Assembly (NCBI GenBank): GCA_963784645.1
Contig: CAWARY010000005.1
Location: 178,656 to 242,655 of the forward strand
DNA: 64,000 nt
DNA from: an uncultured Actinomycetota bacterium
Lineage (GTDB): Bacteria > Actinomycetota > Actinomycetes > JACCUZ01
Direction of reading: 5' to 3'
A program made the position numbers and the translations under genes. This document shows positions 6,019-60,643 of this stretch, one piece after another. The notes beneath the pieces are model-generated. The model ran no database searches and had not been told where the DNA came from. It saw only the letters and a program-made list of their open reading frames with translations. Each line of letters begins with the position of its first letter. Position 1 is the first letter of the stretch.

Positions 6019-6876
6019 ATGACCGGAACCACTCTCGCCGTCGTCGGAGCGGGCCTCATGGGCTCCGGCATCGCCCAGGTCTCCGCGGTCGCGGGGCACG
6101 ACGTCGTGCTGCGCGACGTCACCGACGAGGCGCTCGGGCGCGGCCGTGCCGCGATCGAGAAGTCGCTGTCGCGGTTCGTGGCGAAGGGCACGCTCGAGCA
6201 GGCCGACGCCGAGGCCGCGCTGGGGCGGATCACGACGACCACCGACCTCGACGCTGCCGGCACCGCCGACGTCGTGGTCGAGGCGGCGTTCGAGGACGTC
6301 GAGGTCAAGCAGGAGGTCTTCCGCCAGCTGGACCGGATCTGCCACGAGGGCGCCGTCCTCGGGACCAACACCAGCGCGATCCCGATCACGACGATCGCGT
6401 CGGTGACCGGGCGGCCGGAGGCCGTGGTGGGCATGCACTTCTTCTCGCCGGTGCCGATGATGGCGCTCTGCGAGCTGGTGCGCGGCCACAAGACCAGTGA
6501 CGCGACCCTGGCCGCCGCCCGGGGGTTCGCCGAGGGGGTCGGCAAGACCTGCGTCGTCGTCAACCGCGACGTTGCCGGCTTCGTCACGACCCGGCTGATC
6601 TGTGCGCTCGCGATGGAGGCGATCCGGCTGGTCGAGAACGGCGTGGCCACCGCCGAGGACATCGACACCGCCTGCAAGCTGGGATTCGGGCACGCGATGG
6701 GCCCGCTGGCGACTACCGACCTCACCGGCGTCGACATCCTGCGCAACGCGAGCATGAACATCTACCGCGACACCGCGGACGAGAAGTTCTTCCCGCCGGA
6801 GACGCTCTCGCGGATGGTGGCCGCGGGCGACCTCGGCCGCAAGTCCGGCCAGGGCTTCTACTCCTACGAGAGCTGA
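6019..6876 (+). CDS. 3-hydroxybutyryl-CoA / 3-hydroxyacyl-CoA dehydrogenase
   Basis: 285 aa with an NAD-binding motif VVGAGLMGSGIAQ and the typical HBD C-terminal domain. Confidence 0.85.
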   Translation: MTGTTLAVVGAGLMGSGIAQVSAVAGHDVVLRDVTDEALGRGRAAIEKSLSRFVAKGTLEQADAEAALGRITTTTDLDAAGTADVVVEAAFEDVEVKQEVFRQLDRICHEGAVLGTNTSAIPITTIASVTGRPEAVVGMHFFSPVPMMALCELVRGHKTSDATLAAARGFAEGVGKTCVVVNRDVAGFVTTRLICALAMEAIRLVENGVATAEDIDTACKLGFGHAMGPLATTDLTGVDILRNASMNIYRDTADEKFFPPETLSRMVAAGDLGRKSGQGFYSYES

Positions 6877-6980
6877 GCCGCCCGCGCCCCTGCCGTGACC
6901 GGCCGGGGTCAGAGCGCTTCGGACAGGGGCCTGCTCGCCTGCCGGGCCGTCCGCCGTCGCCCAGGGGCACCCCGGTTTCC

Positions 6981-7033
6981 ATGATCCACAGGGGATCTGT
7001 TGGATATTTCCCAACGGATCCGCTGTGGATCAT
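6981..7033. repeat. Family-1 palindromic intergenic element, full copy (arms ATGATCCACAGGGGATCTGTTGG / CCAACGGATCCGCTGTGGATCAT, loop ATATTTC)
   Basis: Inverted repeat with 23-bp arms and 2 mismatches. Related copies occur at 44161-44217 and, truncated, at 32644-32688. Confidence 0.6.
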
Positions 7034-7091
7034 GAACTGGCGGGTGCATCAGGAGGGTTCCGGCGCTCTGACCTGGGACGAAGTGGTTCCG

Positions 7092-12841: not shown

Positions 12842-12920
12842 AGCGACCCAGCCTGCCGTACGCCGCCCGGCCGGGGAAGTCCCGCGCCGTGGAAGCCGCC
12901 CGCGCGTCGCCAGGAAAGAT

Positions 12921-12988
12921 CGTTTGCGACCTGAGCCCCGGACACGCCGGGGTACCCACCGGCGTGTCGGGGATCCAGGTCGCAAACG
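12921..12988. repeat. Family-2 palindromic intergenic element (nested inverted repeats CGTTTGCGACCTG...GACACGCCGG / CCGGCGTGTC...CAGGTCGCAAACG)
   Basis: A 68-bp hairpin-forming element. The second copy is at 60540-60607. Confidence 0.6.
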
Positions 12989-13085
12989 AGCGCCCTCCGG
13001 GTGCGGCACCCCGGGGGAGGCAGGCTGCGGGCCATCTTTGCCAAGAAGTGTTGGCAAAGGAGTGTTGGCATGGCATCCTCGGGGC

Positions 13086-16218: not shown

Positions 16219-17994
16219 ATGTCACGTGACTTCCGCACCGTGGGCGTCGTGGGTCTGGGCACCATGGGTGCCGGGATCGTCGAGGTGTTCGCCCGCGAGG
16301 GGCTGCAGGTCGTGGGCGTCGAGCCCACCGAGGAGGCCCTCGAGCGCGGCCGCGGCCACCTGCGCAACTCCACCGACCGCGCGGTCAGCCGGGGAAAGCT
16401 CACCGAGGCCGACCGGGACGCCCTCGTGGCCCGGGTCACGTTCACGACGTCGATGGAGGACCTCGCCGACGTCGACCTCCTCGTCGAGGCGGTGCCCGAG
16501 CGGCTGGACCTCAAGCAGGAGGTCTTCGCGGCCGCGGACAAGATCTGCCGGCCCGACACCGTGCTCGCCACCAACACCTCCTCGCTGTCGGTCACCGAGA
16601 TCTCGGTGGCCACCTCGCGGCCGTCGCAGGTCGTCGGCATGCACTGGTTCAACCCGGCGCCGGTCCTCAAGCTGGTCGAGGTGGTACGCACCGTCGTGAC
16701 CGAGCAGGAGGTCGTCGACGACGTCACCGCGCTGGCCGAGCGGCTCGGGAAGAAGCCGGTCGTCATCGGTGACAAGGCGGGGTTCATCGCCAACGCCCTG
16801 CTGTTCGGCTACCTCAACCACGCGGTGTCGATGCTCGAGTCGCGCTATGCGACCCGCGAGGACATCGACGCAGCGATGCGGCTGGGCTGCGGCTACCCGA
16901 TGGGTCCGCTGGCCCTGTTGGACCTGATCGGTCTCGACACGGCGTACGAGATCCTCGACACGATGTACCGGCAGTCGCGCGACCGGCTGCACGCGCCGGC
17001 GCCGATCCTCAAGCAGATGGTCACGGCCGGTCTCCGGGGTCGCAAGACCGGGCGCGGCTTCTACACCTACGAAGGCCCCGACTCGCCCAAGGTCGTCGAC
17101 GACGCCCTGACACCGGGTGCGGGCGGCGCACACCAGGCCGGTCGCGACGTCCGGCGCATCGGCGTCGTCGGCTCGGGCACGATGGCCACCGGCATCGTCG
17201 AGGTGCTCGCCAAGGCGGGCTACGACGTGCTGTACGTCGCGCGCGGTGCCGAGAAGGTCGCCCGGGTGCGCGCCGACCTCGAGCGGTCGCTGGACAAGGC
17301 CGTGCTGCGCGGCAAGCTCGAGCAGGCCGATCGCGACGCCGCCGTGTCACGGGTCACCGGGTCGGCGCGGCTCGACGACCTCGCCGACCGCGACCTCGTC
17401 GTCGAGGCGGTCGTCGAGGAGCTGTCGGTCAAGCAGGCGCTGTTCTCTACCCTCGACGAGATCTGCCGGCCCGGCACCGTCCTCGCGACCACGACCTCGT
17501 CGCTGCCGGTGGTCGAGCTGGCCGCCGCCACCGGCCGGCCGGCCGACGTCGTCGGCCTGCACTTCTTCAACCCCGCGCCGGTGATGAAGCTGGTCGAGGT
17601 CGTGAGCACGGTGTCGACCGCGGACGACGTCGTCGCCACCGTCCGGCAGGTCTGCGAGCGGGCCGGCAAGCACGCCGTCGAGTGCGGCGACCGGGCCGGG
17701 TTCATCGTCAACGCGCTGCTGTTCCCCTACCTCAACGACGCCGTGAAGATGCTCCAGGCGCACTACGCGAGCGTCGAGGACATCGACGCCGCGATGATCG
17801 TCGGCTGCGGCTACCCCCTTGGTCCGTTCGACCTGCTCGACGTCGTCGGCCTCGACGTCGCGTACGCCATCCAGCGCACGCTCTACCTCGAGTTCCGCGA
17901 ACCGGGGTTCGCGCCGGCGCCGCTGCTCGAGCAGCTCGTCACCGCCGGCTACCTCGGTCGCAAGGCCGGCCGCGGGTTCCGCGACTACCGCTGA
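16219..17994 (+). CDS. Tandem-duplicated 3-hydroxyacyl-CoA dehydrogenase (two complete HBD modules fused)
   Basis: 591 aa carrying two NAD-binding motifs (VGVVGLGTMGAGIVEV and IGVVGSGTMATGIVEV), each followed by an HBD C-terminal domain. Confidence 0.85.
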   Translation: MSRDFRTVGVVGLGTMGAGIVEVFAREGLQVVGVEPTEEALERGRGHLRNSTDRAVSRGKLTEADRDALVARVTFTTSMEDLADVDLLVEAVPERLDLKQEVFAAADKICRPDTVLATNTSSLSVTEISVATSRPSQVVGMHWFNPAPVLKLVEVVRTVVTEQEVVDDVTALAERLGKKPVVIGDKAGFIANALLFGYLNHAVSMLESRYATREDIDAAMRLGCGYPMGPLALLDLIGLDTAYEILDTMYRQSRDRLHAPAPILKQMVTAGLRGRKTGRGFYTYEGPDSPKVVDDALTPGAGGAHQAGRDVRRIGVVGSGTMATGIVEVLAKAGYDVLYVARGAEKVARVRADLERSLDKAVLRGKLEQADRDAAVSRVTGSARLDDLADRDLVVEAVVEELSVKQALFSTLDEICRPGTVLATTTSSLPVVELAAATGRPADVVGLHFFNPAPVMKLVEVVSTVSTADDVVATVRQVCERAGKHAVECGDRAGFIVNALLFPYLNDAVKMLQAHYASVEDIDAAMIVGCGYPLGPFDLLDVVGLDVAYAIQRTLYLEFREPGFAPAPLLEQLVTAGYLGRKAGRGFRDYR

Positions 17995-31789: not shown

Positions 31790-32548
31790 TCAGGAGTCTG
31801 ACCTCGCCTCGATCGCATCCAGGTCGCGCACGGCGTAGCGGTGGTGCTCCCACTCCTCGCCCAGGATCACGTGCAGGCACGAGAGGACGGTCTCCGGGTA
31901 CTCGGGGGCGTGGGGGTTCCTGCGCGTCTCGGCCAGCACCTCCGGGGTGACGGAGGCGAGGAAGTCGCGCACCATCGCGACGCGACCCTCGCGGACCTCG
32001 AGCACCTCGGCATACGTCGGCGTCTCCGTGGCGAAGACCGACATGTCGCGGCCGTCGGCCTCGAAGCTGGCGTCCGGCTGGCCGATGGGGTGGAACGGCT
32101 GTTCGAGCTCCAGGACGGCCTTGCCCAGCCACATGTCCGTGGCGAGGACCAGGTGTCGCAACGTCTGCGCGAACGACCACTCGCCCCCCACCGAGACGTC
32201 GACCGTGCCGCCCGGCAACGCCGAGACCCGCTCGAGCGTGACCGCCCAGGTGCGCTCGAGCGCGGCCCAGGCGGCGCGCAGGCCGTCCGGGGCCCCGGCG
32301 CGGCGGTCGGCGCGGCCGGGGAAGCGGCGGTTGAGCTCGGCCTCGACGAGGGGGATCACGTCGACGCCGTTGACGCGCAGGAATCCCTCGCCGTCGAAGA
32401 GCCACGGCGCGTCGATGTCCGCCCCCAGCACGTCGACCGCACGCATCTGCACGCCGGACAGGTCTGCTCTGACGAACCGGGCGCCACGCAGGTCGGCGTC
32501 GACGAACTCCGCCCCCTGCAGGTCGTCGGAGCGGGTGAACGTTGCCAT
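31790..32548 (-). CDS. Pentapeptide-repeat plus DinB_2/DUF664-domain protein
   Basis: The N-terminus carries pentapeptide repeats (ADLRGARFVRADLSGVQMRAVDVLGADI). A strong AAGGAG ribosome-binding site precedes the ATG. Confidence 0.65.
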   Translation of the reverse strand: MATFTRSDDLQGAEFVDADLRGARFVRADLSGVQMRAVDVLGADIDAPWLFDGEGFLRVNGVDVIPLVEAELNRRFPGRADRRAGAPDGLRAAWAALERTWAVTLERVSALPGGTVDVSVGGEWSFAQTLRHLVLATDMWLGKAVLELEQPFHPIGQPDASFEADGRDMSVFATETPTYAEVLEVREGRVAMVRDFLASVTPEVLAETRRNPHAPEYPETVLSCLHVILGEEWEHHRYAVRDLDAIEARSDS

Positions 32549-32643
32549 GACTTCTCCTTGTCGAGCGCCGGTCGCCGCTGGCGCACGCTAGCCGTTGGTC
32601 GCGAGCCAGACGTGGATGTCGCCTCGCCCGTCGCATTTCCAGA

Positions 32644-32688
32644 GGAGATCTGTTGGAGAAACTGCTACCGATCCCCTGTGGATCACGG
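32644..32688. repeat. Family-1 palindromic element, truncated copy (lacks the left TGATCCACAG terminus)
   Basis: GGAGATCTGTTGG-AGAAACTGCTA-CCGATCCCCTGTGGATCACGG. It abuts the 80-bp repeat A. Confidence 0.5.
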
Positions 32689-32700
32689 GATGGACGGTCA

Positions 32701-32780
32701 GGGCGGGATCGCCGGGAAACCGTTGTGGACAAAGGGTTTCCACGGGTACGCGTGTGCGCTAGGCTTCGAACATACGTTCG
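32701..32780. repeat. 80-bp direct repeat, copy A (78/80 identical to copy B at 33461-33540)
   Basis: GGGCGGGATCGCCGGGAAACCGTTGTGGACAAAGGGTTTCCACGGGTACG... Similarity to copy B extends back to 32658 (AACTGCT). Confidence 0.7.
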
Positions 32781-32923
32781 CGAGCCTGACTGGGATATTC
32801 GCAACGATCCGGCGCGCGCCCTCCGACGGGCCGTCGATGCCGGGCCGGGCCGGGTGGTCATCGGGTGTGCACTCGTCGTGTGCCAGCTCCCGACGACGCG
32901 CGCCTGGGTAGCGCTCACACGTT

Positions 32924-33308
32924 GATCGTGAAGCCGAGCTCGTAGTCGCTGGCGGCCTCGCCGCCGGCGCCCCAGTTCTCCACAGCACTCTCCCTGAGCA
33001 GAATCGGACACGCCGTCACGCGGGATCCCCATCCCCTCAAGTCGCTGAACGATCTCGCGGTACAGATCGCGCTTTGCCTTGATGGTTCGGCCGGAGAAGC
33101 AGTCGATTGTGACGCGGGTATATGCGTCAGCCGCTCCGTCCTCGAGCCCGCTCACCATGCGGTGCGGCTCGAAGACGGCAAGTCGGATGTAGCGATCCTC
33201 TTCGGGGATCTTGAACGCGGCTACGAGGCTTTCGTGCACCGCGTTGATGATGGCGACTTCTTGCTCCGGCGTGTAGTGCCTGCGAACTTCGATCAGGGTG
33301 CTGGGCAT
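32924..33308 (-). pseudogene. Tautomerase-family (4-OT-like, Pro-1) gene interrupted by a +1 frameshift; low-GC codon usage
   Basis: The N-terminal 99 codons read MPSTLIEVRRHYTPEQEVAIINAVHESL...GIPRDGV. The conserved C-terminus ILLRESAVENWGAGGEAASDYELGFTINV* is in the +1 frame. The span is 385 nt (3n+1). Confidence 0.6.
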
Positions 33309-33460
33309 GTACCAGAGATATCAGGCCCGCACGTCCGTCGATCGGGCAACAGGCGTTCACGACGCGCTTGGCGTGTCTGTCATTTCGGGACCAGGGAAGA
33401 GGCATTGATTCGACGGGTTGTCCGCGATGAGCGCAGTCGCTAACTGCTGCACTCCCGGGC

Positions 33461-33540
33461 GGGCGGGATCGCCGGGAAACCGTTGTGGACAAAGGGTTTC
33501 CACGGGTACGGGTGTGCGCTAGACTTCGAACATACGTTCG
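33461..33540. repeat. 80-bp direct repeat, copy B, forming the leader/promoter region of the DUF222/HNH gene
   Basis: It ends 49 bp upstream of the HNH gene ATG. Confidence 0.7.
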
Positions 33541-33588
33541 AGCGGTCGGAGGTGGGGTGCGTGGAGGCGTCGCTCGCGCCGATGCTCG

Positions 33589-35055
33589 ATGCTGTCGCCG
33601 GACCCTGCCGACCTGCTGGACCCGGTGCTGGCGCCCGATCCGCTGCCCGACGGATGGCTGGACGGGTGCGCCGACCAGGCGCCGGACTTCTTCGTGCCGA
33701 TCGACTCGGTCGCCTGGGACGCGGACGGCGAGGGTGCCGAGGTGGATGGCTGGCCGCCGAGCGACCTGCTGAGCGACCTCGACGACGTGCCTCCGGGTCC
33801 GCTGCTGGCGAGCCTGCTGGCCGCGACCGACCTGGCGGGCTGCTCGGACTCGGACCTGGCGGGTGCGGTGCGTGCCGCGTACCGGTTGCAGTCGTGGGCG
33901 GCGGCGCTGGAGGTCGAGGCGACGAACGTGCTGGTGGACCGGTGCGCGTCCTGGCGCGGGGTGGCGCCTGCCGGGGAGCAGGTGGCGGGGGAGTCGGTGT
34001 CGGCGGAGCTGATGGCCGCGGTCGAGATCGGCTGCGCGCTGGACCTGGCCCCGCAGACCGCCCGCGCCAAGGTGGTGCTGGCCCGGGACCTGGCCCGGCT
34101 GCCCGCGACGCGGCTGGGCCTGGCCGCGGGGGTCCTCGACCTGGCGAAGGCGCGGCTGCTGGTCGACGAGCTGCGGCCCCTGGACGACGAGCTGGCCGCC
34201 GAGGTGGAGGCCCGGATCGTGCCCGGCGCCGCGGGCCGGACCCGGGCGCAGCTGCAGAGCCGGCTGCGGCGGGCGGTGCTCGCGGTCGACCCCGCGGCGG
34301 CGCTGGCCCGGCAGGAGAAAGCCATAGCCGACCGGCGGGTGGAGGTGTTCCCGCTCAGCGACGGGATGGCCGGGCTGACCTACACCGACACCGCGCAGAA
34401 GGTGCACGCCCTGTACCTGTGGCTGACCGGCCGCGCGCACGCCGCGCGAGGCCCGGCCGGGACCGACGACCGTACGATCGACCAGGTCCGGGCTGACGTG
34501 CTCGGTGACCTCGGGGAGCAGGGGCTGGCGTGCGGGGACCTGCCGGTGCGGCACGGGCGGCGCCCGCAGATCCAGGTCGTCGTGGGGGTCGGGACGCTGC
34601 TCGGGCTGGACGAGCTGCCCGGTGAGCTGGTCGGGTACGGGCCGGTCACCGCCGACACCGCCCGTCGGATCGCCGCCGACGGCACGTGGCGGCGGCTGCT
34701 GAGCGACCCGCGGACCGGCCGGTTCGACGAGCTGTCGGTCGAGAGCTACCAGCCCCCGCAGGACCTGGCCGACCACGTGATCACCCGGGACCGGACCTGC
34801 CGCACCCCCGGCTGCCGCACGGCGGCGCACCGCTGCGACCTGGACCACCGGGTGCCGCACCCGCGGGGCCCGACCTCGGCGGGCAACCTCGACGCGGCCT
34901 GCCGCAGCCACCACACCGTGAAGACCCACACCGACACCACCGTCGAGAGCGACGGTCACGGCGGGCTCCGGTTCACCCTGCCCTCCGGACGCACCTACCG
35001 GCGACCCGCCGACCCCGTCCAGGACGACCTGTTCAGCGACATCCCCCCGTACTGA
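33589..35055 (+). CDS. DUF222 plus HNH endonuclease domain protein (13E12-repeat family)
   Basis: 488 aa. The C-terminal HNH motif is ...TCRTPGCRTAAHRCDLDHRVPHPRGPTSAGNLDAACRSHHTVKTH. Confidence 0.85.
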   Translation: MLSPDPADLLDPVLAPDPLPDGWLDGCADQAPDFFVPIDSVAWDADGEGAEVDGWPPSDLLSDLDDVPPGPLLASLLAATDLAGCSDSDLAGAVRAAYRLQSWAAALEVEATNVLVDRCASWRGVAPAGEQVAGESVSAELMAAVEIGCALDLAPQTARAKVVLARDLARLPATRLGLAAGVLDLAKARLLVDELRPLDDELAAEVEARIVPGAAGRTRAQLQSRLRRAVLAVDPAAALARQEKAIADRRVEVFPLSDGMAGLTYTDTAQKVHALYLWLTGRAHAARGPAGTDDRTIDQVRADVLGDLGEQGLACGDLPVRHGRRPQIQVVVGVGTLLGLDELPGELVGYGPVTADTARRIAADGTWRRLLSDPRTGRFDELSVESYQPPQDLADHVITRDRTCRTPGCRTAAHRCDLDHRVPHPRGPTSAGNLDAACRSHHTVKTHTDTTVESDGHGGLRFTLPSGRTYRRPADPVQDDLFSDIPPY

Positions 35056-37093: not shown

Positions 37094-38218
37094 CTAGCGC
37101 TTCGCTGCGGAGGACTTCTCCGGCGTGATCGTCGTCGTGGGTGCGGCGGTGGTGGGTTTGTCGCCGCCTCCGGTGTCCGCGCCCGCGTGGCCCGTCGCGT
37201 CGCCGGTGGCGTCCTTCGCGGCCGGCTGCTCGCCGGGTGCCGTGGAAGGCGAGGTCGCGGCCGCGTCGGTGCCGGCGACCTTGGTTGCCTTCGCACCATC
37301 GCTGGGCTGGGCCGGTCCGCTGGCCTGGGGGGTCTGGTCGGTGCCGTCGGTGCCGAGCGGGTCCGGCAGTGAGGCGCCGGTGAGCGTCGCCAGCATCTGC
37401 CGGACGTTGGTGAGCTGGGAGTTGATGCTGTCGCGGCGCTGGGTCGCGGCACTCAGCTCGCGCTCGGACTCGGTGCGGATGCGCTCAGCAGTGGCCTTCG
37501 CCTCCGCGACGATGTCGTCGGCCTGCCGGCTGGCCTCGTCGCTGGTCCGCTTGGACTTGCGGTCGGCGTCGGCACGCAGCTTCTCGGCCTCCAGCCGCAG
37601 CTGCTCGGCGCGGTTGCTCACCGCCGCGAGCTGCTGCTCGTTGGCCTTCATCTGCTCGGTGAAGTCGCGCTCCGACTGGTCGCGGCGGTGCGCGAGGGTC
37701 GTCTCGAAGTCCGCTGCGGCCTGGGCAGCCTTGGCGCGGTTGTTCTCGAACAGGGCCTCGGCCTCCTCGCGGCGAGCCTTCGCGTCGCGCTCCGAGTCGT
37801 CGCGCAGGGTGTCGGCCCGCTTCTTCGCGTCCTGCAGGACCTTCGCCGCCTCTGTGTCGGCGTCGGTCCGCCGCTCCTGGGCGTAGCGCTCGGCAGCCGT
37901 GCGGATCTTCTCCGCGTCCTGCTCGGCGAGCGTGCGGTGCTGGACCGTCTCGTCGACGGCGGCGGAGCGCAGCACCTGCGCCTCCTCCTCGGCGAGGCCG
38001 AGGATCTGCTCGATCCGCGCCCCCAGCCCGGCGAACGGTGCGCCCTTCTCGGCCGGGTCCTGCTGCGCGGGTGCCTCCTGCGCGCGCCGCTCGGCCTCGT
38101 CGGCCCGGCGGCGCTGCGTCTCGAGCTCCCGCTGCAACGCGGCGAGATGCTGGTCGACCTGAGAGGGCTCGTAGCCCCGTCGAACGACCTCGAAGGACTG
38201 GCTGGGGGTGTTGTTCAT
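37094..38218 (-). CDS. DivIVA-domain protein
   Basis: The N-terminus FEVVRRGYEPSQVDQHLAALQRELE is the DivIVA signature. A long coiled coil and a Thr/Ala/Pro-rich tail follow. Confidence 0.75.
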   Translation of the reverse strand: MNNTPSQSFEVVRRGYEPSQVDQHLAALQRELETQRRRADEAERRAQEAPAQQDPAEKGAPFAGLGARIEQILGLAEEEAQVLRSAAVDETVQHRTLAEQDAEKIRTAAERYAQERRTDADTEAAKVLQDAKKRADTLRDDSERDAKARREEAEALFENNRAKAAQAAADFETTLAHRRDQSERDFTEQMKANEQQLAAVSNRAEQLRLEAEKLRADADRKSKRTSDEASRQADDIVAEAKATAERIRTESERELSAATQRRDSINSQLTNVRQMLATLTGASLPDPLGTDGTDQTPQASGPAQPSDGAKATKVAGTDAAATSPSTAPGEQPAAKDATGDATGHAGADTGGGDKPTTAAPTTTITPEKSSAAKR

Positions 38219-38262
38219 GGATCAGGTCCTGTCGTCTACAGCAGTACGGAGCGGGGTTCGAG

Positions 38263-39747
38263 TCATCGTGCCACGTCGGCGTCCTGGGGGTCCCGGACCG
38301 GTGCGCCGGGGACCGAAAGCGCATCGATCACCCCGGACAGGCGACCGAGCTCGCCGGCGATCTCGTCCCGGCGGGTCGTGAGCGCGGCCACCTCGGCCCG
38401 GGCCTCGTCGAGCATCTGCTGGCCCTGGGTGCGCACCTCGTCGGCCTCGATCCGGGCGGCGCCCACGATGCGGACAGCCTCGGCCTGCGCGGTGCGACGG
38501 GCCTCCTGCGCCTCGCGCTGGGCGGCCGCCGTCTGCTCGGCCACTCGCTCGCGCAGCGCCTGGGTGTTGGCCTCGGCCTCGGTCTCCCGCCGGGTCGCCC
38601 GCGAGTCGATCTCGGCGACCTTGGCCAGCGACTCCTCGACCGTGCGGCTCGCCCGGTGGCTCGCGTCGGCCAGCCGGCGCTCGGCCTCGGCGTGGGCCGC
38701 GCCCAGCGCCTGCTCGGCCTCGGCCTCCATCGCGGCGGCCTTCGCCTCGGCCTCGGCCAGCCGCTGCTGGCACGAGGCCTGGGCGCCGGCGAGCAGGTCC
38801 TCGGCCTGTGCGCGTCGCTCGGCGACGGCCCGGGCGCCCTCGGCGTGCGCCTCGGCGCGGATCCGGTCGGCGTCGGTCGCGGCGGCGGCGAGCACCTCGT
38901 CGACGGTGCGCTTGGCCCACGCGGTCTGCTCGTTGGCCTCGGCCAGCAGCGCGTCGGCCTCCTGACGCGCCGCCGCGCGGAGCTTCTCGGCCTCGTCGGT
39001 GCCCGCCGCGAGCAGGGTGGCGTGCTCGGCACGCACCCGCCCGGTGTCCGCGTCCAGCGCCTCGCGGGCCTGGCGGGCCAGGTCGTGGGCCTCGGCGAGG
39101 GCCGCGTCGGCCTCCTGCCGGGCGGCGGCGACCATCGCCTCGACCTCGGCCTGCACCTCGGTGGCTCGCTGTGCGGCCTCCTCCTCGACCTCGCGGCGGC
39201 GACGGGCGGCTTCCTCCCGGGCTTCCGAGACGATCGCGTCGGCATCCTGGTGCGCCTTGTCGCGATGAGCCTGGGCCTGGGCCCGCATCGACTCGGCGTC
39301 GGCCGCGGCGACGTCGCGCAGGGTCCCGGCCTCGGCCTGGCCGCGCGCCACCAGGTCGTCGGCCGTCGCCGACGCGGACGACACGACCAGGGCAGCCTGG
39401 TCGGCGGCGTCGGTGAGCAGCTGGTGCGCCTCGTCGGCGGTGTCCGCGCGGAGCCGTTCGGACTCGAGGAGGGAGGTCTCGAGGCGCCGGGCCGCCTCTT
39501 CGAGCGCGTCGGCCCGGCGGCGTACGGCCTCCTCTTCGAGGCGGGTGGCGTCGGCGTGCCTGCCGGCGATCTCGGCGTGCAGGTGGCGGGCCTCGGCGTG
39601 CAGCGCGTCGGCCTCGGCACGCCGGTCGGCTGCCTCGCGCTCGGTCTGCTCGCGCAGGCGGTCGGCCTGCGCCTGGGCGGCCTGCAGGAGCCGGCCGGCC
39701 TGCTCGGCGACCGGCTCGTCGGCGTCCGACGACAGGTCCTGCACCAT
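38263..39747 (-). CDS. Ala/Glu/Arg-rich coiled-coil protein (apolipoprotein/ATP-synthase-B-like heptad repeats)
   Basis: 494 aa from the ATG at 39747 (MVQDLSSDADEPVAEQAGRLLQAAQAQADRLREQTEREAADRRAE...). Confidence 0.6.
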   Translation of the reverse strand: MVQDLSSDADEPVAEQAGRLLQAAQAQADRLREQTEREAADRRAEADALHAEARHLHAEIAGRHADATRLEEEAVRRRADALEEAARRLETSLLESERLRADTADEAHQLLTDAADQAALVVSSASATADDLVARGQAEAGTLRDVAAADAESMRAQAQAHRDKAHQDADAIVSEAREEAARRRREVEEEAAQRATEVQAEVEAMVAAARQEADAALAEAHDLARQAREALDADTGRVRAEHATLLAAGTDEAEKLRAAARQEADALLAEANEQTAWAKRTVDEVLAAAATDADRIRAEAHAEGARAVAERRAQAEDLLAGAQASCQQRLAEAEAKAAAMEAEAEQALGAAHAEAERRLADASHRASRTVEESLAKVAEIDSRATRRETEAEANTQALRERVAEQTAAAQREAQEARRTAQAEAVRIVGAARIEADEVRTQGQQMLDEARAEVAALTTRRDEIAGELGRLSGVIDALSVPGAPVRDPQDADVAR

Positions 39748-44160: not shown

Positions 44161-44217
44161 CCGTGATCCACAGCGGATCCATGTGGTTTTTCCTCACCAA
44201 TCCGCTGTGGATCACGG
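44161..44217. repeat. Family-1 palindromic intergenic element, full copy
   Basis: CCGTGATCCACAGCGGATCCATGTGG-TTTTTCCTCA-CCAATCCGCTGTGGATCACGG, with 18-bp perfect arms. Confidence 0.6.
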
Positions 44218-44240
44218 AACTGCGGGTGGCCGGGGCCGGC

Positions 44241-60526: not shown

Positions 60527-60539
60527 CCCCACACCATCT

Positions 60540-60607
60540 CGTTTGCGACCTCACTCCCCGACACGCCGGGATGGCCGCCGGCGTGTCCGTGAGCCAGGTC
60601 GCAAACG
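60540..60607. repeat. Family-2 palindromic intergenic element, second copy
   Basis: CGTTTGCGACCTCACTCCCCGACACGCCGGG-ATGGCCG-CCGGCGTGTCCGTGAGCCAGGTCGCAAACG, lying between the glgP and glgX stops. Confidence 0.6.
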
Positions 60608-60643
60608 AGCGAGAGGGGTGGGCGGGCGGTGGGCCGCCGGACG

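Follow-up and report, generated by a model that had tools for sequence, protein, structure and literature searches.

A repeated leader with a predicted LexA operator at a 13E12-family DUF222-HNH gene of an uncultured Actinomycetota bacterium

The window considered here, which is the whole 64-kb stretch of DNA that was analysed, carries a gene for a DUF222 protein with a C-terminal HNH motif. The short sequence in front of this gene occurs a second time in the window, with no such gene behind it. This raises the question of what the repeated leader does for the gene: whether it is a site to which a nuclease gene spreads, a control element that is duplicated with the gene, or a part of a mobile or defensive unit. 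The most probable answer, which can be given a probability of roughly 0.8, is a self-contained cassette of ~1.6 kb, in which a LexA-repressed and damage-induced promoter-operator is joined to a single DUF222-HNH nuclease gene whose product ends in an SSB-tip-like tail. Within the large 13E12/DUF222-HNH family of actinobacteria, the locus as such is nothing out of the ordinary. The features discussed below are collected in Table 1.

Table 1. Features of the DUF222-HNH locus and of the repeats in the window (positions are those of the window)
Feature	Position	Strand	Remarks
DUF222-HNH CDS	33589..35055	+	488 aa + stop; first in-frame start is ATG 33589
DUF222 (PF02720) region, residues 132-401	33982..34791	+	Pfam E=1.2e-19; all-alpha in model
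Predicted HNH core, residues 404-445	34798..34923	+	C404, C409, C416, D419-H420, N433, C438, H442, K445
C-terminal tip S-D-I-P-P-Y, residues 483-488	35035..35052	+	SSB-tip-like; disordered in model
Leader repeat copy B, predicted promoter-operator module of the gene	33461..33540	+	repeat comparison
Leader repeat copy A, solo, no DUF222 gene downstream	32701..32780	+	repeat comparison
Predicted LexA SOS box TCGAACATACGTTCGA	33526..33541	.	12/12 match to TCGAAC-N4-GTTCGA; 48 nt upstream of ATG
-10-like hexamer TAGACT (TAnnnT)	33520..33525	+	directly abuts SOS box
Palindromic TTGTGGACAA, candidate DnaA-box element	33483..33492	.	includes TGTGGACAA
TTGTGGACAA in copy A	32723-32732		
TAGGCT, -10 of copy A	32760-32765		
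SOS box of copy A	32766-32781		one mismatch
GGAGG, Shine-Dalgarno-like	33548..33552	+	sequence; compared with upstream regions of P0056 and L006/L008
Intact family-1 palindromes	6979-7046; 44161-44228		neighbours are unrelated metabolic genes; distance to the gene 26 kb and 9 kb
Decayed family-1 half-palindrome	32632-32699		directly upstream of leader copy A

The gene and its protein product

The open reading frame agrees exactly with the earlier description in its coordinates and length, and its translation includes CRTPGCRTAAHRCDLDHRVPHPRGPTSAGNLDAACRSHHTVKTH. The position of the start codon differs between the window and the close relatives of the gene. In two of these, P0056 and P0122 (497 aa), the reading frame begins 9 codons earlier, with a GTG that corresponds to position 33561 and has GGAGG in front of it. 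The window carries a 1-nt insertion relative to the close relatives, by which this GTG is shifted out of frame. The GGAGG is well positioned for the GTG start of the relatives and lies 37 nt from the ATG. Because of this indel, the ATG is left without a good ribosome-binding site, and the efficiency of translation is therefore in doubt.

The larger part of the protein is covered by the Pfam DUF222 family, with a score of 71.2 bits against a cut-off of 24.4 bits, and PF02720 is also present in nearly all close homologues. The AF2 model has a pLDDT of 86 overall and above 90 across residues 70-320, and the N-terminus is disordered. No solved structure related to the protein was found by sequence or by Foldseek: the profile search of PDB sequences returned only noise, and the full model gave nothing at E<=0.001 against PDB and BFVD. 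The top Foldseek matches in PDB were helical membrane receptors, which were rejected as meaningless for a protein of this kind.

The C-terminal motif C-x4-C...DH...N...C-x3-H is fused to DUF222 and conserved in homologues, where the core residues of Table 1 are invariant or at least 90% conserved in sets of 28, 83 and 25 sequences. Among the 83 sequences H420 is invariant, and D419, N433 and H442, which are invariant in the set of 28, are at least 90% conserved. In the zinc-type cysteine cluster C404 is invariant, and C409, C416 and C438 reach at least 90% conservation. The catalytic His/Asn/His residues are thus intact, both in the window and in the homologues. Two PHROGs profiles named 'HNH endonuclease' (phrog_589 and phrog_333) match residues 389-449 with E=7.4e-6 and 6.8e-5, and the same region of the model has a putative beta-beta-alpha arrangement of strands 417-420 and 434-437 and helix 439-447.

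Sister-clade homologues match the Pfam HNH family PF01844. Neither the 488-aa protein nor its C-terminal 119 aa matched this family even at E<=10, and the HNH of the window protein is too divergent for it. The NCBIfam search of the protein returned noise, with no HNH model among the matches, and Foldseek gave no significant HNH relative, only weak local matches (probability 0.72-0.80). The model of the isolated C-terminal domain, with a pLDDT of 59.8, is too poor for use. The predicted HNH assignment rests on the PHROGs profiles, the conserved residues and the order of strands and helix in the model, and with it the architecture of DUF222 followed by a C-terminal HNH, proposed in the first-pass annotation, is upheld. 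Such a domain would form a zinc-stabilised beta-beta-alpha active site, with H420 as the general base, N433, and H442 as a metal ligand. Judged from its sequence, the protein would act as a nuclease, and the large all-alpha DUF222 domain presumably recognises its substrate or DNA.

The repeated leader and its predicted control by LexA

The gene does have its own repeat leader, as had been claimed: the two copies are 80 nt long each and 98% identical, and none is expected by chance. The solo copy A is directed at the 3′ end of a convergent tautomerase gene. Searches with blastn and tblastn downstream of it detected no leftover of a lost DUF222 gene, and 80 homologous loci showed no further leader of the solo type.

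The arrangement of the SOS box and the -10-like hexamer is common to the family. An SOS box with at most 2 mismatches, mostly a perfect one, adjoins the gene start in at least 51 of 71 homologous loci, 3 further loci being added by inspection, and the background is 0.05 per equivalent stretch. Of 48 loci, 40 have a TAnnnT hexamer that borders directly on the box or shares 1 nt with it. The exact 22-nt core of the -10 and the box was found in 7 metagenome contigs, 4 of which continue with a DUF222-HNH gene (tblastn). Among the remaining contigs, at least one has a divergent DUF222-type ORF behind the core, and one is too short to call.

The LexA consensus of Mycobacterium tuberculosis is TCGAAC(N4)GTTCGA, and 13E12 genes lie at 6 of the 25 LexA ChIP-seq peaks in this species (PMC3381160). 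An example of such a gene is Rv2100, in which transcription starts inside a functional SOS box and mutation of the box derepresses the promoter; other 13E12 members of M. tuberculosis are induced through RecA-NDp (PMC3381160). The corresponding motif TGTCRGTG is present at the RecA-NDp offset in nine homologous loci. It is absent from the leader in the window, where 3 of 8 positions match by eye at the expected offset. A literature search found no papers that link PafBC with 13E12 in a limited literature set. No lexA gene was located in the 64-kb window, and the scan of positions 32500-33700 for promoters of the E. coli type, a model uninformative for actinobacterial promoters, gave no site.

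By its sequence, the leader is best described as a predicted LexA promoter-operator of the kind already known for the 13E12 family, and not as a homing site. Binding of LexA, the transcription start within the box and induction by damage are proposed by analogy with the published experiments in M. tuberculosis. During normal growth, a LexA dimer would occupy the SOS box of copy B. Since the box starts directly after TAGACT, it would cover the expected transcription start and block initiation. Upon DNA damage, the RecA-stimulated self-cleavage of LexA would free the promoter and the nuclease would be made. The leader would then be repeated because it is the promoter of the family, whose paralogues duplicate as promoter-plus-gene units, and this LexA operator accounts for the 'repeat leader' without homing. 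The comparison of loci also shows the SOS operator fused to the -10 to be ancestral in the family throughout Actinomycetota, and no mycobacterial peculiarity.

Copies of the cassette and competing explanations

The suspicion that the gene is one of several copies was justified by the copy-number survey. A paralogue (P0019) is located on the same 766-kb contig, outside the 64-kb window, in which no second DUF222-HNH gene was found. The nearest relatives come from soil MAGs with 69-76% identity and 2-4 copies each, and the family as a whole comprises 32,864 clusters at 50% identity. The copies are discrete units of ~1.6 kb with unrelated flanks. Loci L001 and L002 share a stretch of 1583 nt at 97.5% identity, and this unit, which lies between unrelated flanks, extends from ~10 nt 5′ of TTGTGGACAA to just past the stop codon. 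In the syntenic pair L003 and L007, the flanks are 86-88% identical and the gene only 76%. The flanks in the window have no synteny with any of the related loci. The neighbours encode DinB_2, tautomerase, isochorismatase and an AI-2E transporter, which are unrelated housekeeping or metabolic genes, with no integrase, prophage gene or transposase among them.

Part of this evidence would also suit a selfish, recombinogenic cassette of ~1.6 kb, in which the promoter-plus-gene unit is what evolves and the breaks made by its SOS-induced nuclease stimulate gene conversion between the paralogues or their ectopic recombination. It would persist and multiply on this account, and not through a service to host repair. 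The paralogues have the discrete unit in common, the lower identity of the L003 and L007 genes is consistent with replacement or conversion, and the solo leader suggests a past rearrangement at a unit. Moreover, the REP13E12 loci of M. tuberculosis are among the top hotspots of gene conversion and inversion (PMC13061034, PMC13157036). Such an explanation is nevertheless unlikely. Neither a transposase or integrase nor terminal repeats or target duplications were detected, phage and plasmid records contain hardly any members of the family, and repeats recombine without needing a nuclease of their own. The catalytic residues and the tail are strongly conserved over the 32,864 clusters, which indicates selection on the function of the protein.

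The predicted SOS control of the nuclease is also compatible with an anti-phage or abortive-infection effector, in which a toxic nuclease is released on the SOS signal of infection or prophage induction. In M. tuberculosis, prophages of the phiRv1 type attach at REP13E12. PMC13061034 also mentions a putative prophage attachment site. This role is improbable, however, as PADLOC gave no significant match and the surrounding genes are the unrelated housekeeping or metabolic ones named above. No conserved partner immunity or sensor gene is present either, because the unit consists of a single gene.

The homing-like relationship suggested in the first-pass annotation assumes that the family-1 palindrome, which forms TGATCCACAG...CTGTGGATCA hairpins, is the target of the HNH enzyme, and that the gene spreads to such sites. 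What speaks for it is the degenerate copy directly upstream of leader A and the resemblance of the palindrome arms TGATCCACA to the TGTGGAC/DnaA-box-like element of the leader. However, this copy adjoins the gene-less leader A, ~760 nt upstream, and not the leader of the gene itself, and it has lost the hairpin (fold z=-1.9, in comparison to -8.5 and -7.2 for the intact palindromes). Near the intact palindromes there is neither a DUF222 gene nor a leader. In the 80 homologous loci, the palindrome core had 0 matches, and single arms never pair there. The gene is free-standing and intergenic, outside any intron, intein or conserved host gene, and the ends of the unit show neither terminal repeats nor a duplicated target site. 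Recognition of the palindrome by the nuclease is therefore not borne out by the distant intact copies, the decayed near copy and the 80 loci, and the homing reading is very improbable. From the association with two repeat families proposed earlier, the link to the leader repeat remains, whereas that to the family-1 palindrome is weak and comes down to one decayed half-copy nearby.

The idea that the leader is no DNA operator but works as RNA, in the manner of a riboswitch, an attenuator or some other structured 5′ UTR, can draw on the hairpin GGAAACCGTT-7-AAGGGTTTCC and on a folding of the leader that is slightly more stable than that of shuffled sequence (z=-3.1). It is scarcely credible, since the -10 places the hairpin upstream of the expected transcription start, so that it would stay untranscribed. 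Across loci the arms of the hairpin are not kept, in contrast to the TGTGGAC core, the TAnnnT hexamer and the SOS box, which are palindromic DNA motifs with constant offsets, and the Rfam search of the window gave no match.

Known systems, the DnaA-box-like element and the C-terminal tail

The 13E12 loci of M. tuberculosis (REP13E12; Rv2100, Rv0336, Rv0515, Rv1702c) resemble the cassette in the combination of DUF222 (PF02720) with a C-terminal HNH, in their multicopy repeats of ~1.4-1.6 kb and in the SOS box TCGAAC-N4-GTTCGA at the promoter. Some of them also or instead use a RecA-NDp/PafBC promoter, and the function of the family is still undefined (PMC3381160, PMC13061034). The copy in the window differs in its origin from an uncultured, non-mycobacterial lineage of Actinomycetota, in an HNH beyond the reach of PF01844 and in a leader without the RecA-NDp motif of other members, and nothing evident at this locus points to a part in prophage attachment. 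Taken alone, the gene matters little, as it is one more copy in a family for which LexA control has already been published in M. tuberculosis.

Colicins E7 and E9 are SOS-regulated HNH DNases of the beta-beta-alpha-metal type, which are repressed by LexA and induced by damage. The likeness lies in an HNH nuclease gene with a LexA operator, here predicted from the sequence. In contrast to the colicins, the protein in the window lacks domains for translocation or for a receptor, and its gene is not accompanied by immunity or lysis genes. The gene is chromosomal and single, not plasmid-borne, and its product is presumably intracellular. HNH homing endonucleases, free-standing or intron-encoded, include I-HmuI and the phage Mob-type enzymes. 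They share the HNH motif, the compact single-gene unit and the several copies per genome, but the gene in the window lies outside any intron, intein or target gene, its family is essentially absent from phage records, and the DUF222-HNH units have no recognisable target or empty-site relationship.

The leader contains a further element, a perfect DnaA-box 9-mer located ~42 nt upstream of the SOS box. This TGTGGACAA is the exact reverse complement of the actinobacterial high-affinity DnaA box TTGTCCACA (consensus from PMC4285127), and the surrounding TTGTGGACAA sits in the loop region of the GGAAACCGTT/AAGGGTTTCC hairpin (33475-33501). A metagenome scan for the 20-mer of the hairpin and DnaA box gave 0 matches. 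The element may have a role in the promoter, as a second regulatory input for the 13E12 family. The output of such a promoter would integrate DNA damage with the status of the replication initiator.

The protein ends in a tail that is similar to the C-terminal tip of SSB (DDDIPF in E. coli, DDEPPF in mycobacteria). Published SSB tips read GADDEPPF and FGGGDDEPPF, and their terminal Phe is essential (PMC3575820, PMC7847540). The family consensus is D-D-[DE]-[P/x]-P-P-F, which gives D-[D/E]-x-P-P-F/Y at the extreme C-terminus. As in SSB, it follows a disordered, acidic and Pro-rich linker of variable length and closes with an aromatic residue. In the model of the window protein, the pLDDT falls below 50 at residues 485-488. 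The PPF/PPY end is at least 90% conserved in close homologues and present in 49 of 78 loci and in 69 of 137 diverse representatives, against a background of zero among other ORFs. The tail is missing in about half of the family and is therefore not essential for the core activity.

The resemblance to SSB is limited to this docking peptide. Only DUF222 was detected in the Pfam search of the protein, with no SSB match, and the model is all-alpha plus HNH. The absence of an OB fold and of a Pfam SSB match makes the tail at most a mimic of the SSB tip. We infer such mimicry from the sequence: the flexible acidic tail ending in D-I-P-P-Y would imitate the tip, so that the nuclease made upon damage could dock onto the readers of SSB tips at SSB-coated single-stranded DNA, or could compete for them. 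This SSB-like docking peptide of the family is previously unremarked, and a search of a limited literature set found no papers linking SSB tails with HNH or SOS. It suggests interaction partners for a family without an assigned function.

A broader and more tentative proposal is that the family consists of stress-induced nucleases which are tied to the replication and repair hub by the SSB-tip-mimic tail and the LexA/DnaA-box promoter (with PafBC in some members), both undescribed before. This proposal is possible rather than probable. The co-occurrence of the SOS box and the tail gave counts of 42/8/3/16, in which the kinship of the loci is ignored. The last residue of the protein in the window is Tyr and not Phe, and several homologues end exactly in DEPPF.

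The leader repeat and its promoter elements

The DUF222-HNH gene is directly preceded by one of two copies, 98% identical, of an 80-nt leader. Read base by base, the leader is a promoter-operator module, in which a small hairpin, a -10 hexamer and a LexA SOS box follow each other (see the table). The box corresponds to the mycobacterial LexA consensus TCGAAC(N4)GTTCGA (PMC3381160). Copy A retains all three elements: TTGTGGACAA, the hexamer as TAGGCT, and the SOS box with one mismatch.

Coordinates of the gene, its leader and the family-1 palindrome in the window
Feature	Position	Strand	Remarks
DUF222-HNH CDS	33589..35055	+	intact ORF, 488 codons
DUF222 (PF02720)	residues 132-401		Pfam E=1.2e-19, 71.2 bits against a 24.4-bit cut-off
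Leader copy B	33461-33540		directly 5' of the gene
Leader copy A	32701-32780		no DUF222 gene downstream
Palindrome TTGTGGACAA	42 nt upstream of the SOS box		within a small hairpin
-10 hexamer TAGACT (TAnnnT)	33520-33525		abuts the SOS box on its 5' side
LexA SOS box TCGAACATACGTTCGA	33526-33541		perfect match to the consensus; end of the leader; 48 nt upstream of the ATG
Family-1 palindrome, intact	6979-7046		between 3-hydroxybutyryl-CoA-dehydrogenase-like and STAS-domain genes
Family-1 palindrome, intact	44161-44228		flanked by the end of a MeaB-like gene and by a convergent gene
Family-1 palindrome, third copy	32632-32699		decayed half-palindrome, z=-1.9; adjoins leader copy A

The conservation of this arrangement was followed across 80 genomic loci with encoded homologues at 31-76% identity. 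Soil and freshwater Actinomycetota MAGs supplied most of the loci; others belong to Kribbella, Jiangella, Actinotalea, Flavimobilis and Actinocatenispora. Of the 71 usable loci, 51 have an SOS box with at most two mismatches beside the estimated start of the gene. Most of these boxes match perfectly (12/12), and the background is 0.05 per equivalent stretch; in three additional loci the box lies slightly beyond the search range. Where the box has at most one mismatch, a TAnnnT hexamer abuts it or overlaps it by one base (40/48 loci). In nine loci TGTCRGTG, the RecA-NDp motif, stands eight bases 5' of the -10. The exact 22-nt core of -10 and box was found by scan in seven metagenome contigs, counting L085, which is too short to call. 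Downstream of the core, tblastn places a DUF222-HNH gene in four of the seven; L083 has a divergent DUF222-type ORF there, and L087 has downstream sequence in common with L083.

In M. tuberculosis, six of 25 LexA ChIP-seq peaks lie at 13E12 genes. The functional SOS box of Rv2100 contains the mapped transcription start, and its mutation derepresses the promoter, while other members of the family are induced through RecA-NDp (PMC3381160), via which PafBC acts (PMC6789036). The promoter architecture published for this family is the same as that at the loci described here, and therefore the leader is the damage-responsive promoter of the 13E12 family, which is already known biology.

A further element of the promoter resembles a DnaA box. 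TGTGGAC/GTCCACA is the top 7-mer in an unbiased enrichment over 48 upstream regions (16/48 against 0.43 expected; 24/48 when TGTGCAC is included). Its offset from the SOS box is fixed at -42 +/- 2 in the nearer clade; in Jiangellaceae the orientation is reversed and the offset ranges from -50 to -56. M. tuberculosis and S. coelicolor both have TTGTCCACA as their high-affinity DnaA box (PMC4285127). Perfect DnaA-box 9-mers occur ten times in 503 kb of loci, nine of them followed by an SOS box 25-70 nt downstream, and only twice in the window, once per leader (0.1 expected). On these sequence patterns the element may be a DnaA site, the site of another dimeric factor, or a marker of the repeated unit's 5' boundary.

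Several loci show variations of the arrangement. At ~2930-2995 of L025 and L080, CTGTGGATGA (DnaA-box-like), TGTCAGTG/TGTCGGCG-N8-TAGAAt (RecA-NDp-like) and a perfect SOS box lie within ~60 nt, which suggests up to three regulatory inputs on one promoter. L064 has another SOS-box-like site at ~4065, ~40 nt past the DUF222-HNH stop codon. This site, TCGAACGCGTGTACGA, follows a TAGAC and may serve as leader for an adjacent unit or for a different SOS gene.

The solo leader of the window, whose DnaA-box-like element, -10 and box occupy 32701-32781, is oriented into the 3' end of a convergent tautomerase gene. It could be the relic of a lost paralogue or could drive an SOS-controlled antisense or short transcript; no further solo leaders were seen among the 80 loci. 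The tautomerase-family gene (32917-33308, minus strand) lies between the leader copies and matches Pfam Tautomerase_2 across its first 100 aa. It seems frameshifted near 33010, with the expected C-terminal part (ending in ILLRESAVENWGAGGEAASDYELGFTINV and a stop) running on in another frame, and could be a pseudogene or reflect a long-read indel error.

The HNH protein and its C-terminal tail

The first-pass annotation described a 488-aa protein with a C-terminal HNH motif of the 13E12 family, and both the ORF and the quoted motif are present in the translation. The Pfam HNH model gives no match to the isolated C-terminus even at E<=10, and NCBIfam none to the protein, so the assignment needed further support. 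Such support comes from PHROGs "HNH endonuclease" profiles, which match residues 389-449 (E=7.4e-6 and 6.8e-5), and from alignments of 28, 83 and 25 homologues. The motif is intact, and across these alignments C404 and H420 are invariant and C409, C416, D419, N433, C438, H442 and K445 invariant or at least 90% conserved. The AlphaFold2 model is confident (mean pLDDT 86, pTM 0.77, HNH region >90); it places a strand at D417-H420, a second strand at 434-437 and a helix at 439-447, so that the modelled topology is a beta-beta-alpha arrangement. Sister-clade homologues from Pseudonocardia and relatives match Pfam PF01844 and are named "HNH endonuclease signature motif containing protein" by NCBI. 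Fold searches returned zero significant matches: the small HNH part resembled HNHc proteins only weakly and locally, and no solved relative of the large, all-alpha DUF222 part was found.

The start of the window gene differs from that of its relatives. Relative to P0056, a frameshifted orthologue from a close relative, and P0122 (497 aa), a 1-nt insertion (region 33561-33591) puts the ancestral GTG and GGAGG ribosome-binding site out of frame. The ATG at 33589 is the first in-frame start and has no obvious Shine-Dalgarno sequence.

Alignment of the C-terminal 104 residues revealed D-x-P-P-F/Y at the end of every close homologue, behind an acidic, Pro-rich and unalignable linker of 0 to ~45 residues. 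The window protein ends in SDIPPY, with a tip disordered in the model (pLDDT <50), and its same-contig paralogue in LDIPPY. PPF, PPY or PF ends occur in 49 of 78 complete loci, relatives at 31-40% identity included; PPF/PPY ends are found in 102 of 113 close homologues and in 63 of 115 of the Pseudonocardia-type set, where 14 more end in x-P-F/Y. The tail is present in 69/137 diverse 50%-cluster representatives, with the consensus D-D-[DE]-[P/x]-P-P-F. Among 2,754 stop-to-stop ORFs of at least 100 aa from the window and all loci, 47 have PPF/PPY ends, and all 47 are DUF222-HNH genes.

The C-terminal tips of SSB are GADDEPPF or FGGGDDEPPF in mycobacteria and DFDDDIPF in E. coli; partner proteins of SSB dock onto this tip, whose terminal Phe is essential, and in mycobacteria it activates ClpX (PMC3575820, PMC7847540). 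Five loci (L021, L026, L050, L052 and L070) end in exactly the mycobacterial DEPPF. From this likeness of sequence we infer that the DUF222-HNH tail mimics the SSB tip. Among the papers searched, none linked SSB tails to HNH endonucleases and the SOS response. The tail and the SOS box tend to occur together (42/8/3/16, Fisher p=2e-7, for loci that are not phylogenetically independent), and a Nanopelagicales subgroup is without both.

The loci of this freshwater acI-type subgroup (L054-L067 and L073; Nanopelagicales/Planktophila) end in ...FFVPARPILDAV/I, with no PPF tail and no upstream SOS box, and so form a natural contrast group for the roles of the two features.

Proposed mechanism and its rivals

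In the most likely mechanism, LexA, on an operator covering the transcription start, would keep the cassette repressed, and DNA damage would derepress it. Its product would be a putative zinc-stabilised HNH nuclease, in which the DUF222 domain presumably provides substrate recognition and the SSB-tip-like tail presumably links the nuclease to the machinery at SSB-coated single-stranded DNA. For regulation, this proposal builds on the promoter sequences and the M. tuberculosis experiments; the enzyme's activity and the tail's function are inferred. Two family-wide features, the SSB-tip-like tail and the DnaA-box-like promoter element, make an old "function unknown" experimentally testable.

In the main rival explanation, the cassette would be above all a selfish, recombinogenic repeat. 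The window holds one copy, but the gene is not single-copy: its 766-kb contig also carries a 658-aa paralogue (P0019), and the nearest MAGs have 2-4 copies each among the fetched loci, in line with the multicopy family proposed earlier. The paralogues have a discrete unit in common between unrelated flanks, with homology running from ~10 nt 5' of TTGTGGACAA to the stop codon or just beyond; between the loci L001 and L002, it covers 1583 nt at 97.5% identity. Neither terminal inverted repeats nor target duplications were seen at the unit ends, and no transposase or integrase was seen accompanying the units. The family comprises 32,864 clusters (50% identity) at E<=1e-3 and 6,389 at E<=1e-30. 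It is essentially chromosomal, with four weak, partial tblastn matches in 50,697 phage records and one in 72,556 plasmid records. The rival fits the discrete unit, the solo leader, and the conversion and inversion hotspots reported at REP13E12 in M. tuberculosis (PMC13061034, PMC13157036). It also fits the syntenic loci L003 and L007 of two MAGs, where the flanks are 86-88% identical and the unit between them only 76%, a pattern that rapid evolution of the unit, or gene conversion replacing it at a fixed site, could explain. A selfish repeat and a LexA-controlled nuclease are not mutually exclusive.

The homing-like relationship proposed between the nuclease and the family-1 palindrome (arms TGATCCACAG / CTGTGGATCA) did not hold up, although the family assignment made with it did. 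The two intact copies are long, near-perfect intergenic hairpins (fold z=-8.5 and -7.2) with no DUF222 gene or leader near either, and the copy near the gene is decayed. The palindrome core has 0 matches across the 80 loci, where single-arm near-matches are never paired, and the gene lies outside any intron, intein or conserved target gene; the relationship is therefore unsupported.

Other repeats of the window

The family-1 palindromes look like a REP/MITE-like element. Their arms, TGATCCACA, resemble DnaA boxes and agree exactly with the consensus given for Caulobacter in PMC4285127; this likeness may be why a link between the two repeat families was sensed in the first-pass annotation. A second palindromic family, TCGTTTGCGACC...GGTCGCAAACGA, occurs at 12920-12992 and 60539-60611 (85% identical) and forms a very stable hairpin (z=-9.6).

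The segments 16390-17036 and 17308-17954 are tandem paralogues, 918 nt apart and 73-74% identical. A third copy (6184-6483), more distant, falls within the 3-hydroxybutyryl-CoA-dehydrogenase-like gene, and the segments probably represent duplicated dehydrogenase genes. A minus-strand gene at 37520-39670 contains fourteen degenerate copies of a ~73-nt unit at spacings that are multiples of 3 (33, 54, 66, 120...), which suggests an Ala/Glu/Arg-rich repetitive, coiled-coil-type protein.
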